Assembly (NCBI RefSeq): GCF_988242995.1
Contig: NZ_OZ547043.1
Strand: one strand, 5' to 3'
DNA: 64,000 nucleotides
The notes under the pieces were generated by a model. The model searched no databases, was not told the origin of the DNA, and was given only the letters and a program-made list of their open reading frames with translations. Numbering within the stretch: the stretch's first letter is position 1; each line of letters begins with the position of its first letter. Shown one piece after another: positions 8,186-33,603 of the stretch. Position numbers and translations under genes: made by a program.

Positions 8186-9014
8186 TCATCCCGGGCAAAT
8201 GCCCGGGAACTACTCCAGGACTATTTTCTTTGTTAAAAAAAGACAAATGGTATGAACTGATGTATTTACTGTTTACCTGATTGCACCCTGCAGGGGATTA
8301 TCAGAATCCACGATTATTCATTATTTATATATATTCAATAAAAAGGAACCTCAAAAAAAAAATCCCGCACTCACAGGGTGATGCGGGATAACTGACGTAA
8401 GGAATGCTGCCGGGATTTGGTGGTCCCTTGTGCTGATATGAATACAGATTCTATTTTATACATAATACTTTTCAGTACAAGCGACTGTATTACAGTTTGC
8501 CATATATGATTACCTGTGATCCGGAAGAATAAGTGGCTGCAGCTTCAGACTGACCGCCGGTACAAGTTCGCTCAGAATAACCAACCTGAGTCGCAATATC
8601 GACAATGTACTCGCCCTGCTAGCGCATTTGCTTTACCATCTAAAAGTCTTCTCTGCTCAGTATGTTGATGTCCTTTCTGATGTAAGAACCTCTAGGAAAC
8701 AACATGTTGGATGGTTCGAGCTAATCCAAATGGTGATTTACCGTCTTATATCATTGGCGCTGACAATCCGGCGTTCCAGTTCGTCAATACGAGGAGAACA
8801 TCCGTCAAGGCGGGGTAATAAAGCTCTTAAGCGGTCGTTGTTCCTGACAGCCTTCGCTGCACTCATAGCCCCAATATCCAGGGCCTACTACACAAACGAC
8901 ATAGCTAGGTGTTTATCGCCCTAGCAAGACAGCGCAGAAACGTTCTGTTCACCATAATATCTGACGGAGCTTTATATGTAAGCGTACAGCGAGGGCCGTA
9001 TTGACGGGGATGTG

Positions 9015-10400
9015 TTATTCAGCTGGCAGTGCTATGCGCCACGGAAGCAGTTCGCTGACCCGGTTGACCGGCCAGTCTGCTATGACGCCAGGCACATGGC
9101 GAAGGTAGCTTTCTGGATCCACGTCATTCAGTTTGCACGTCCCGATCAGGCTGTACAGTAGCGCTCCCCGCTCACCACCATGGCCAGAGCCGAAGAACAG
9201 GGTCTTCATCTTTTCACGCAACCAGCTTTCCAGGGATTTCAACAGCGGTTTCGTTTTTCGCTGACGTTCAGCAAGCCGCTGCTCTGCCGGCATTCCCCTT
9301 ATATCCGCCTCTATGGCGTACAACTGACCGATCTGCTCTAGGGCTTCTTCCGTCAGTGCTGACGGGATGCGGACGTGCACATCGTGGATCTTTCGGCGGG
9401 CATGAGCCCAGCAGGCAGCTTCCGTTATCCCACCATTGCGATACAGCTCGTTGAACCCGGCGTACGCATCCGCTTGCAGCACACCGCTGAAGCAAGCAAG
9501 ATGAGTCTGCGGATGGATGCCTTTTCTGTCCGGGCTGTAAGCGAACCTCACTGCAGGTGCCAACGCTGACCCGGCATTGCGGTCATCACGAACATACGCC
9601 CACAACCGCCCGGTCTTCGTCTTCTTATTACCCGGCAGCAGTACCTGGACCGGGGTATCATCGGCATGGAGTTTGCCGTCAGTCATGACATAGCCATGAA
9701 GCGCCTCTTCCAGCGGAGACAGCAGCCGGCAGCATGCATCCACCCAGCCCGACAGCAGTGAACGGCTCAGCTCCACACCTTGCCGGCCGTATATTTCTGA
9801 CTGGCAATACAGCGGGGTGTGCTCTGCATACTTCGAGGTCAGCACGCGGGCCAGCAGCCCCGGTCCGGCGATACCCCGCTCGATGGGCCGCGAAGGTGCA
9901 GGTGCCTGCACGATGGCATCGCACTGAGTACAGGCATGTTTTTCCCGTACCGTCCGGATAACCCGGAAGGCGCTACGCATCAACTCCAGCTGTTCGGCGG
10001 TATCCTCGCCCAGATAGCTCAGTGAACCGCCGCAGTTCGGGCAGCACGGCGCCGCAGGCAACAGTCGCTTTTCGTCACGGGGTAGTGATTCAGGGAACGG
10101 CTTACGGGTGCGGGTCTGACGCAACGGACGCTGTACTGCCGGGTCATACACCCTACCAGTCAGCGTATCGCTCTCTTTCTGAAGCCGGTTCAGATCGGCT
10201 TCCATTTGTGCGATACGGCGGGAGACTTTTTCGGAACGACTGCCGAAGTTCATCCGGCGGAGTTTATCCAGCTGCGCCTGCAGATGGTCTATTTCGCGCT
10301 CCCGGTTGCTCAGCTTTTCCTGCAGGGCGTGGATCAGCGCTTCCTGTTCGGCCAGGCGCTGTTTCAGCAGGAAGATGTCGTCAGAAGAGATGTCGTTCAT
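9015..10400 (-). CDS. IS66-family transposase TnpC, internally deleted (461 aa versus 512 aa in copy 2)
   Basis: Alignable along its length with the 30404-31942 ORF in this window but lacks 51 residues between …REKMKTL and FFGS…; Cys-rich zinc-binding region CCPNCGG…CTQC present. Confidence 0.8.
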   Translation of the reverse strand: MNDISSDDIFLLKQRLAEQEALIHALQEKLSNREREIDHLQAQLDKLRRMNFGSRSEKVSRRIAQMEADLNRLQKESDTLTGRVYDPAVQRPLRQTRTRKPFPESLPRDEKRLLPAAPCCPNCGGSLSYLGEDTAEQLELMRSAFRVIRTVREKHACTQCDAIVQAPAPSRPIERGIAGPGLLARVLTSKYAEHTPLYCQSEIYGRQGVELSRSLLSGWVDACCRLLSPLEEALHGYVMTDGKLHADDTPVQVLLPGNKKTKTGRLWAYVRDDRNAGSALAPAVRFAYSPDRKGIHPQTHLACFSGVLQADAYAGFNELYRNGGITEAACWAHARRKIHDVHVRIPSALTEEALEQIGQLYAIEADIRGMPAEQRLAERQRKTKPLLKSLESWLREKMKTLFFGSGHGGERGALLYSLIGTCKLNDVDPESYLRHVPGVIADWPVNRVSELLPWRIALPAE

Positions 10401-10449
10401 AAGCCCGTATTTTACCGGGCTTATTCTGTGACAACCAGGATAAAGAGAT

Positions 10450-10797
10450 TTACAGCATGGTCAGGGAGGTCAGCAGCCGCTTGGGCTGTCGCCAGTCGAT
10501 ACCTTCCAGCAGCATCGCCAGCTGCGCCTGCGTAAGGAACACTTTGCCATCACGGGCTGACGGCCAGGCGAAGCGCCCACGCTCCAGCCGTTTGGTCAGG
10601 AGGCACAGTCCGTCACCGGTGGACCACAGCAGTTTAACCTGACTGCCGCTGCGGCCCCGGAAAATGAAAACATGGCCGGACATGGGATCGTCTTTCAGCG
10701 CCGTCTGTACTTTCGCAGCCAGGCCGTTGAAGCCATTTCTCATATCGGTGATACCGGCAACCAGCCAAATTTTGGTCCCGGAAGGTAACGGGATCAT
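10450..10797 (-). CDS. IS66-family accessory protein TnpB (orf2)
   Basis: 115-aa ORF (MIPLPSGTKIWLVAGITDMRNGFNGLA…), near-identical paralogue at 31991-32338; overlaps orf1 by 4 nt. Confidence 0.85.
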   Translation of the reverse strand: MIPLPSGTKIWLVAGITDMRNGFNGLAAKVQTALKDDPMSGHVFIFRGRSGSQVKLLWSTGDGLCLLTKRLERGRFAWPSARDGKVFLTQAQLAMLLEGIDWRQPKRLLTSLTML

Positions 10798-11195
10798 CGC
10801 TTCAGTTCCTGTATCAGCAGAGTCAGGAGCTTTTCGCTGACATTGCCATTGAAGCGGAGCGTCCCGTGCCGGAACGTTATCTCACAGCTGATACTGAGGG
10901 TTTCCGGGTCCTCTGCGAGCGATTCTGGCTGTTCGGCAGCTGCATCGAGAGTCACAGGAAGTAGCTGGGGGCTCTCTGAAGAAGGTAATAGCAGCTTTCC
11001 CTCACGCCATTGTTGTCGCCATTTGAACAACAGATTGGCGTTAATGCCATTTTCAAGAGCAAGTTTTGAGATGGATATCCCGGGTTCACAGGAGGCAGCA
11101 ACGAGCTGCTGTTTAAATTCGGGAGGATAATTAGGGCAGCCTTTTCGCCTGCCGGGATTCACATTTTTCTGCATATCTGACACTTTGGTTCCCAC
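10794..11195 (-). CDS. IS66-family orf1 protein (helix-turn-helix, transposase-associated)
   Basis: 133-aa ORF at the head of the IS66 three-gene unit; paralogue at 32335-32754. Confidence 0.8.
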   Translation of the reverse strand: MGTKVSDMQKNVNPGRRKGCPNYPPEFKQQLVAASCEPGISISKLALENGINANLLFKWRQQWREGKLLLPSSESPQLLPVTLDAAAEQPESLAEDPETLSISCEITFRHGTLRFNGNVSEKLLTLLIQELKR

Positions 11196-31942: not shown

Positions 31943-31990
31943 ACCGGGTATATTACCAGGCTCATTCAGCGTCGACCAGGATAAAGAGGC

Positions 31991-32338
31991 TTACAACATA
32001 GTCAGGGACGTAAGCAGTCTTTTAGGCTGCCGCCAGTCGATACCTTCCAGCAGCATCGCCAGCTGCGCCTGCGTAAGGAACACTTTGCCATCCCGGGCTG
32101 ACGGCCAGGCGAAGCGGCCGCGCTCCAGCAGTTTGGTCAGCAGATACAGTCCATCGCCGGTAGACCAGAGGAGCTTTACCTGACTGCCATTACGCCCACG
32201 GAAGATAAAAACGTGACCTGACATCGGATCGTCTTTCAGCGTCGTCTGCACCTTTGCCGCCAGGCCGTTGAAGCCGTTTCTCATATCGGAGATGCCAGCG
32301 ACCAGCCAGATCTTTGTCCCTGATGGTAATGGGATCAA
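31991..32338 (-). CDS. IS66-family accessory protein TnpB (orf2)
   Basis: 115-aa ORF, near-identical to 10450-10797. Confidence 0.85.
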   Translation of the reverse strand: MIPLPSGTKIWLVAGISDMRNGFNGLAAKVQTTLKDDPMSGHVFIFRGRNGSQVKLLWSTGDGLYLLTKLLERGRFAWPSARDGKVFLTQAQLAMLLEGIDWRQPKRLLTSLTML

Positions 32339-32754
32339 CGTTTGAGCTCCCGTATCAGCAGGTTCAGGATATTTTCGCTGATGGCACCATTCAGACGGAG
32401 TGATCCGTGCCGGAACGTCACTTCACAGCTGATATTGAGTGATTCAGGTGTCGCAGCAGCTACAGGTTGTGACCGGGGGGAGGTTGTAGGGACAACATCT
32501 TCGGCATCAAGTGTTATCGGGAGCAGCTCAGGCACGTTGTTTTCTGTTGTTGAAGGAGGACGTAGTTTTCCTTCGCGCCAGTACTGGCGCCACTTGAACA
32601 GCAAATTATCGTTGATCCCATGCTCACGAGCGAGTTGCGCTACGGAGATCTCTGGTCGATGCGAGAGTTCAACCATTTTGATTTTGAACTCCACGGGATA
32701 ATTAGGGCTTTTTTTACGCACTGCGGTTAATGATTTTATGGATAGCGTCCACAT
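32335..32754 (-). CDS. IS66-family orf1 protein
   Basis: 139-aa ORF overlapping tnpB by 4 nt; paralogue of 10794-11195. Confidence 0.8.
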   Translation of the reverse strand: MWTLSIKSLTAVRKKSPNYPVEFKIKMVELSHRPEISVAQLAREHGINDNLLFKWRQYWREGKLRPPSTTENNVPELLPITLDAEDVVPTTSPRSQPVAAATPESLNISCEVTFRHGSLRLNGAISENILNLLIRELKR

Positions 32755-33603
32755 ATTTGGTGTCCACTATTCTCTCAGGAATTTCAGGATCTGCCAGACG
32801 GTGCTGAGACGACGCTTACATAATTTTTACGTTCAAGACAGTTGATTATCGGCGCATATGACTCAAAAAGAGCCTGATGATTGCCTCTTTTCCATAGGCT
32901 CTTTCTCTGAAGTGAAGGAAGGCCCGGAAGAAAGCACTCGCTGGCATACGTGACTCCAGCTCAACCGGAGATAATCACCATTGTTATTTTTCTATTTAAT
33001 AATAATCTCCTGAAAAATAGATATAGCAAAAATACAATCCGGCCAGATTTAATTCCGCATTCATTACCAGAAACAATCAACACCACAACTATCATATCAT
33101 TCAATAGTAACTGCTAAAATTTTATTATTTCCCTCTTATTCACATAGAAATTGTCAACCTGTTTATTATGCCGCACTTAAATAGTTAATCACAAAACAAC
33201 ATCACCATTATTTGCGTGTTTTATTTATTAATAACATAGTCATACGTTCTTTTTTTACAAGGAAATAATCAATTGATAAATTGTTTTTGGTCTTAATAGT
33301 CAAGTAGGAAACATTTTAATAAATGATAAAAATCCTAAATTCCTTGTTCATAATGTAGGGGTGTGTTAAATAGGTGGGCAAAATTTGGTTCCCCTTCTCG
33401 CCTGTAATATTGCAGCATCTTCGCACCTCCATGAGACATTGCGACTTAATAAGAAGGTGATAAGTCCTGCATATAAGCATGGACTGACCATGGTTTTATA
33501 TTCATTAAAAATTTTGTTACAACCCATTGATTTAGCATAAATAAATTATAGTGGGTTCGGGTTTGTTGTGACTGTGGCATTATTTCCGTGCAAAGGAGCT
33601 GAT

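Follow-up and report, generated by a model that had tools for sequence, protein, structure and literature searches.

Two differently scarred IS66-family elements, ISEc8 and ISEc22, around a CP4-44-like island module in the pheV-kps region of Escherichia coli

The window analyzed here, a stretch of 64,000 nucleotides of the Escherichia coli chromosome (contig NZ_OZ547043.1 of RefSeq assembly GCF_988242995.1), covers the pheV-kps region, in which two directly oriented insertion sequences (IS) of the IS66 family bracket a CP4-44-like island module. The left element (copy A) was identified as an ISEc8 with an internal deletion, and the right one (copy B) as an intact ISEc22. The reading that we favor, at a probability of about 0.8, is that they derive from two unrelated insertion events of two IS66-family species, both of which have since been scarred and neither of which now acts on the module. 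Island junctions scarred by IS in this way are ordinary and already known, and both elements are named in routine RefSeq annotation.

Two IS species in direct orientation

Both elements carry their genes on the minus strand, and they enclose an interior of 19,100 bp within a unit of 23,842 bp.

8978..11266, minus strand: copy A, ISEc8 with a 153-bp internal deletion, 2,289 bp (termini, Pfam and comparison with ISEc8)
9015-10400, minus strand: tnpC of copy A, in its deleted form
9197..9201, no strand: deletion scar in copy A, the one ACAGG left of the 5-bp direct repeat bounding the lost 153 bp (alignment with copy B and with the ISEc8 of M22546)
10450-10797, minus strand: tnpB of copy A
10794-11195, minus strand: tnpA of copy A
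30367..32819, minus strand: copy B, intact ISEc22, 2,453 bp (termini, full-length Pfam domains and RefSeq naming)
30404-31942, minus strand: tnpC of copy B, 512 amino acids
31991-32338, minus strand: tnpB of copy B
32335-32754, minus strand: tnpA of copy B

Members of the IS66 family have GTAA termini and require three open reading frames (ORFs). The genes tnpA, tnpB and tnpC are present in both elements, and each has the Pfam domains HTH_Tnp_1 and TnpB_IS66 together with LZ_Tnp_IS66, zf-IS66, DDE_Tnp_IS66 and DDE_Tnp_IS66_C, with E-values of 1e-76 and 8e-107 for the catalytic domain of the two elements; the similarity is far beyond chance. Copy A starts with GTAAGCGTACAGC at 8978 and ends with GCTGTACGCTTAC at 11266, and its inverted termini read GTAAGCGTACAGC at both ends, with 13 identical terminal bases that begin 5'-GTAAGCG. 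Copy B begins with GTAAGCGTGCAGC at 30367, ends with GACGCTTAC at 32819 and has the GTAAGCG-type sequence GTAAGCGT at both ends. The pair shares with ISEc8 and ISEc22, as these are named by RefSeq/PGAP, the three ORFs, the GTAAGCG termini and the size class of about 2.44-2.45 kb; unlike the norm, copy A lacks 153 bp of tnpC, and neither copy has an 8-bp duplication here.

A repeat search of the window returned three in-register direct-repeat blocks (8974-9201/30363-30590, 9197-9496/30739-31038 and 10407-10706/31948-32247), 85-87% identical and about 21.4-21.5 kb apart, and no inverted repeats. In a pairwise alignment the homology spans the entire elements, at 81.2% identity over 2,270 aligned columns with a further 202 gap columns. 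The longest identical run measures 62 bp and lies in tnpB; eight runs reach at least 25 bp and four at least 34 bp. When the 45-bp ends were compared, the left ends of copy A and copy B were identical at 41/45 positions, the two outer ends (left of copy A, right of copy B) at 20/45 and the two ends of copy B itself at 21/45. IS66 elements normally create 8-bp target-site duplications (PMC6778807). None was found around copy A (flanks CTTTATAT and CACTATTT), around copy B (GCACATTT and ATAATTTT) or around the whole unit, whose outer pair, CTTTATAT and ATAATTTT, is mismatched.

A preliminary description of the window had reported two IS66-family elements in the same orientation with outer limits at 8978 and 32819, about 19 kb of listed genes between them and no target-site duplications. 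These structural statements were borne out: the termini read from the sequence fall exactly on both coordinates, the enclosed genes are present according to Pfam and to the annotation of the near-identical RefSeq locus L001, and no flank pair matches. The same description spoke of two IS copies, which is right as to family only. With 81.2% identity between them, one an ISEc8 that lacks 153 bp and the other an ISEc22, copy A and copy B are different IS species and not two copies of one IS.

Separate histories of the two elements

On either side of its 153-bp gap, copy A shares 99.6% identity with a fragment annotated as ISEc8 (M22546), in which the 153 bp are still present. The loss is in frame and amounts to 51 codons, giving a TnpC of 461 instead of 512 amino acids, and all three reading frames are open despite it. 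This TnpC matches only positions 1-222 of the 284 in DDE_Tnp_IS66 and, judging from the missing positions 223-283, is probably inactive. In strain 98232 a full-length ISEc8 of 2,442 bp (3002-5443 in locus L013; TnpC of 512 amino acids) has the same 30-bp flanks on both sides, and therefore the deletion in copy A occurred in place; the 98232 element is either the pre-deletion state or the product of repair by gene conversion from another ISEc8. Full-length ISEc8 at this site was also seen, in the match table only, in SX4 and SX48. An 8-bp duplication is likewise absent around the full-length element of 98232 and around copy A at a tRNA-Ser locus. Once ISEc8 had reached its site between an IS110-family relic and the zinc-ribbon genes, it lost the 153 bp, most likely by slippage between two ACAGG pentamers, and the TnpC catalytic domain was thereby shortened by 51 residues in its C-terminal part. 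In our reading, copy A is an old and decaying passenger of the left arm of this island family, inherited with the island.

Junction frequencies were obtained by querying 300-bp junction-spanning sequences against 5,426 E. coli genomes, all complete assemblies, which form the comparison set throughout. The right junction of copy A with its zinc-ribbon flank is present in 1,710 of these genomes, at more than one chromosomal position, its left junction with the IS110 relic in 123, the left junction of copy B in 30 and the right junction of copy B in 26. From this nested series (1,710 > 123 > 30 > 26) it follows that copy A has long belonged to this island family, whereas copy B arrived recently and in one lineage. 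Strain E-1246 carries the same 2,289-bp copy A and the module, 97-99% identical, at a tRNA-Ser that neighbors ghrA; the left flank there is not that of the window, the DUF4942 gene is complete, and ISEc22 is lacking. The architecture of copy A plus copy B is intact in at least 21 of the genomes listed, which come from several countries and continents, some with further IS insertions.

The persistence of the shortened ISEc8 in about a third of E. coli genomes could also mean that it is kept for a function, either as a transposition inhibitor or for the expression of the zinc-ribbon genes, which would make it a working part of the island instead of a relic. Its three open reading frames and the 1,710 genomes with its right junction agree with such a role. 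However, copy A differs from the copies at two other loci by 13 nucleotides each; 7 of these differences in one comparison and 9 in the other alter an amino acid, so that 54-69% of the substitutions among these three copies are non-synonymous, close to the neutral expectation. In several strains the element has been interrupted by IS100 or truncated without replacement, a full-length version exists at the same site, and its high identity is predicted anyway by a species-level diversity of at most 1%. The substitutions look like neutral decay with no sign of constraint, although the sample is small, and domestication of copy A was rejected on this pattern; we regard a retained function as very improbable.

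Copy B has a TnpC that matches positions 1-283 of the 284 in DDE_Tnp_IS66, together with TnpA and TnpB, and in near-identical loci RefSeq names it 'IS66-like element ISEc22 family transposase'. It interrupts a DUF4942 gene, which is complete in strains E3 and E-1246 and of which one piece is left in the window.

30229..30366, plus strand: 5' fragment of the DUF4942 gene, 138 bp, cut by copy B (ATG at 30229; C-terminus missing in the annotation of L001)

Strain BL21(DE3) matches the window until 30366/30367, has 969 extra bp and matches again from 32819, so that copy B replaces positions 3588-4556 of the BL21 locus (L005) exactly, end to end. In BL21 these 969 bp comprise the remainder of the DUF4942 gene and a portion of the IS110 relic that lies upstream of kpsF. 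Homology to the window restarts at 32819/32820 in every comparison locus without ISEc22 (BLAST of L002-L007). At the same DUF4942 nucleotide, strains DE17, IMT5155 and VTB96815v carry a 2,442-bp IS66-family element with both gene halves present and a perfect 8-bp duplication, GCACATTT on both sides, in a Phe-tRNA-type island next to cadC.

Most likely, ISEc22 inserted in the DUF4942 gene, producing the GCACATTT duplication, and a one-ended (intramolecular) transposition would then have removed the adjacent 969 bp rightward, including the right-hand copy of the duplication, while the IS was kept whole. We infer this order of events, and likewise the choice of one-ended transposition over recombination with a second IS as the deletion route. 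As in IS-mediated adjacent deletion, copy B is complete and the missing 969 bp start exactly at its terminal nucleotide; no intermediate was found here. To our knowledge, adjacent deletion has not been experimentally demonstrated for ISEc22 or for the IS66 family.

The element of DE17 (596-3037 in locus L011) joins the two IS lineages. Over the first 863 bp it has 100% identity to copy B, and beyond them 99-100% identity to copy A. Specifically, 253 consecutive sites of copy-B type are followed by 375 sites of copy-A type, bar four exceptions, with the switch point between 9687-9694 in copy A and 31229-31236 in copy B. It is a clean single-crossover chimera of the ISEc22 and ISEc8 types, and a 401-bp query across the switch found matches of at least 99% identity in no fewer than 1,393 E. 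coli records, among which plasmids are numerous. Since the chimera was inserted with a duplication, a B-type left end functions with an A-type right end. For either copy A or copy B, a resident chimera would be a much better partner in recombination than the other copy.

The flanks of copy B may instead result from recombination between two direct IS copies, one in the DUF4942 gene (ISEc22 or the chimera) and a second ISEc22 located 969 bp downstream, in the kps flank. On the one hand, an IS with a duplication does exist at the DUF4942 site, the identical 863 bp of the chimera offer ample homology, and in Agrobacterium IS66 is documented to leave this pattern, one IS that combines the outer flanks of two parents (PMC6778807). 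On the other hand, neither ISEc22 preceded by undeleted kps-flank sequence nor two IS copies 969 bp apart were found in any of the 5,426 genomes, and this route takes two insertions and a crossover where the alternative takes one insertion and one further event. We consider it a possible but doubtful origin, and retain a single insertion followed by an adjacent deletion.

The pair as a substrate for deletion or transposition

Deletion products were sought with a synthetic query that joined 2.6 kb of the left flank to 2.6 kb of the right flank, with a flank-joining limit of 3.1 kb; a hybrid IS is expected to leave 2.3-2.45 kb between the flanks. Both outer flanks lay within 3.1 kb in 7/5,426 genomes. 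No hybrid of copy A and copy B stands between them in the five of these seven that were inspected by sequence, and the other two are annotated with an IS1 between the flanks. Strains PSJ-23 and LH10-b-1 keep copy A up to 11077, where it is joined to kps-flank DNA 270 bp to the left of the ISEc22 site, which implies that ISEc22 was never present at that site in these two strains. Of copy A, only 8978-9427/9428 is left in E3 and E300010, and PSS-10 has no copy A. All four relatives that have the same left flank and have lost most or all of the module thus broke inside copy A, at 11077 or 9427/9428. The reciprocal product (DUF4942 fragment, hybrid IS, zinc-ribbon flank) had no full-length match in the comparison set. 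A match of 93% coverage to this query in strain H2 was discarded, since it reflects a deletion within the island and its pieces are arranged in another order. The two outer junctions were found together at pheV-kps only; the tRNA-Ser module of E-1246 has copy A without copy B.

These comparisons bear on what the preliminary description had made of the pair. Its view that the missing duplications reflect earlier IS-linked rearrangement is supported by the 969 bp lost at copy B relative to BL21, by the intact duplication around the related IS of DE17, IMT5155 and VTB96815v at the same DUF4942 nucleotide, by the 123 genomes that have the left junction of copy A versus 1,710 with the right, and by the different left flank of copy A beside tRNA-Ser. 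It had also proposed that recombination would delete the module as a circle and that the pair could behave as a composite element. Neither was corroborated, as no hybrid or reciprocal product was detected in the comparison set, relatives broke elsewhere, and the unit has no flanking duplication and was found at one place.

If the pair were nevertheless active, RecA would excise the 19-kb module as a circle and leave a hybrid IS, or the 23.8-kb unit would move as a composite transposon with the left end of copy A and the right end of copy B. In favor of this are the direct orientation and full-length overlap of the elements, as well as their eight identical runs of at least 25 bp, the longest of which, at 62 bp, reaches the roughly 30-bp minimal processing segment of E. 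coli (PMC8918686). Copy B encodes full-length TnpA, TnpB and TnpC, the left ends of the two copies agree at 41/45 positions, and the widespread chimera, inserted with a duplication while having a B-type left and an A-type right end, indicates that ends of both species can cooperate. However, recombination in E. coli needs an identity block of up to about 30 bp and falls exponentially with divergence, by at least 10^4-fold at about 20% (PMC8918686). With 81% identity and a longest run of 62 bp the elements are therefore poor RecA substrates in a mismatch-repair-proficient cell. Long tracts of identity or near-identity are absent, recombinant products were found in 0/5,426 genomes, the TnpC of copy A lacks part of the catalytic domain, and in the relatives without most or all of the module the loss went through other junctions. 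Deletion or movement of the module by the pair is physically possible but unsupported, and we judge it unlikely.

Comparison with known systems gives a similar picture. In Agrobacterium tumefaciens, identical IS66 copies delete 270 kb of pAt15955 by such recombination (PMC6778807). There, as here, a direct IS66-family pair brackets a dispensable segment, and recombination is predicted to leave one IS that carries the outer flanks of both parents; but the pAt15955 pair consists of the same IS66 element with its own 8-bp duplications, and the product was observed (PMC6778807), whereas here the identity is 81%, duplications are absent and no product was found. Composite transposons of the Tn5/Tn10 type resemble the present unit in having cargo between two IS, at least one full-length transposase encoded and the right outer-end polarity. 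They differ from it in that the window has different IS species in direct orientation, no flanking duplication and one genomic location.

The breakpoint inside copy A recurs. Three strains (E3, E300010 and ETEC4071) keep just 8978-9427 of the ISEc8 relic, ending in ...GCAGCTTCCGTTA, with three different partners; the sites (about 3550 in locus L003, about 3552 in L004 and 4199 in L014) all correspond to window 9427/9428, inside tnpC of copy A. The sequence joined at 9427 is a cbtA paralogue in E3 and window 13735, upstream of Hha, in E300010. In ETEC4071, where the island is fec-linked, it is about 70 bp without a match in the window, followed by the DUF905 region. In a spread sample of 60 records this truncation was the best place in one, and the annotation shows no IS end at this point. 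With an endpoint that stays constant while the partners change, in two genomic contexts, the pattern looks like the outcome of one-ended events at a putative cryptic ...CGTTA(C/T) end, which is similar to the true ...CGCTTAC terminus. Taken further, this would mean that IS66 transposases acting in trans actively erode the island by one-ended events, both at true ends (the 969-bp loss) and at the cryptic internal end of ISEc8 (...CCGTTA at 9427), and that the heterologous pair could be mobilized or resolved by transposase instead of RecA. We hold such erosion to be improbable; if it did occur, it would offer experimental access to the poorly understood mechanism of IS66 transposition.

Several points weigh against our preference for two independent and now inert insertions. 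The comparison set holds complete genomes only and both elements occur together in just a small lineage (26-30 genomes), in which a rare deletion product could have gone unnoticed, and a product with an extra internal IS would escape the 3.1-kb flank limit. Two synthetic junction-spanning queries found ISEc22 with a duplication at the DUF4942 site or at the kps-flank site in 0/5,426 genomes; the adjacent-deletion step is hence deduced from its outcome and not from an intermediate. The probable inactivity of the 461-amino-acid TnpC is read from the missing Pfam positions. Finally, the existence of the chimera means that the two IS lineages have exchanged sequence at least once, which keeps deletion or transposition by the pair from being impossible.

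This locus illustrates that a pair of IS from the same family is not automatically a recombination substrate or a composite transposon: here the two are 19% diverged and one transposase gene is damaged. Missing duplications can be explained with the help of relatives, in this case a 969-bp loss beside ISEc22 and an old ISEc8 whose left neighbor varies between genomes. As to the stability of the Ag43/CbtA module and the capsule flank, the data suggest loss via breakpoints inside the ISEc8 relic and not via exchange between the two IS. Beyond bookkeeping the significance is small, the locus being typical of IS-littered pheV-kps junctions.

Island setting and module content

The gene order in L001 is mutY, speC, yqgA, tRNA-Phe, integrase, island and kpsF/E/D, and it is the same in the window; kpsF begins at about 33568 and is followed by the capsule genes, to the right of the interval.

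6647..6722, plus strand: tRNA-Phe at the pheV position, the attachment point of the island (ARAGORN; tRNA-Phe in the annotation of L001)
6920..8185, plus strand: tyrosine integrase of the island (Pfam Arm-DNA-bind_3, Phage_int_M and Phage_integrase; RefSeq annotation of L001)
8754..8977, plus strand: IS110-family transposase relic in the left flank, abutting copy A (frameshifted, N-terminally truncated pseudogene in the annotation of L001, L002 and L013)
11267..30228, no strand: CP4-44-like island module (Pfam and RefSeq annotation of L001)
32820..33567, no strand: conserved flank upstream of kpsF (BLAST of L002-L007 against the window and junction sequences)

No second copy of the pheV 3' end, at up to 3 mismatches, was found in the 64-kb window or in the loci without ISEc22. 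The right boundary of the island is therefore not marked by an attachment repeat here. Likewise, no such repeat lay within the lost 969 bp, which rules out the idea that the deletion beside ISEc22 cost the island its right attachment repeat. In the island-free strain N3, pheV is followed by about 200 bp, an IS110-family relic and then kpsF. This N3-type relic (5201-5470 in L002, 856-1251 in L006) is part of the conserved kps flank and was partly removed by ISEc22 in the window. The possibility that it and the IS110 relic to the left of copy A once formed a single element, which the island then divided, was rejected: judged by eye, the translation of either relic corresponds to the C-terminal region of the transposase, and N3, in which pheV leads directly to kpsF, has no match to window 8234-8977.

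The module begins with two zinc-ribbon genes, YagK/YfjJ, Hha, an alpA-like helix-turn-helix gene (small, and annotated in a near-identical genome), an unannotated ORF of 305 amino acids, a YeeP-type GTPase and Ag43/flu. It continues with an ORF of 840 amino acids, IrmA, DUF905, DUF932, an antirestriction protein, RadC/JAB, DUF987, CbeA/CbtA, DUF5983 and DUF957. CP4-44-type islands at tRNA genes likewise have the YeeP-like GTPase, Ag43/flu, antirestriction, RadC, CbeA/CbtA and DUF4942 genes, with the integrase at tRNA-Phe and the island upstream of kpsF; there is no material difference, and the locus is one of many IS-littered variants with extra IS and internal deletions. The ORFs at 17032-17949 (305 amino acids) and 22239-24761 (840 amino acids) had no Pfam match at E<=0.001; they are hypothetical proteins in RefSeq and conserved in the island.

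The gene upstream of cbeA has a frameshift close to its 3' end that brings it into frame with cbeA, which creates an ORF of 353 amino acids (window 27899-28960) whose last 100 residues are the CbeA antitoxin domain. These two genes are separate in E-1246, and the upstream one is annotated as frameshifted in L001. It is probably a pseudogene, and cbeA probably continues to be read from its own GTG start. In other strains the same island has acquired further IS elements: IS100 has entered the ISEc8 relic, ISEc23 the YagK/YfjJ gene, and IS3, IS679 and ISCro1 lie at other places; the region accumulates IS insertions, several of them of the IS66 family.

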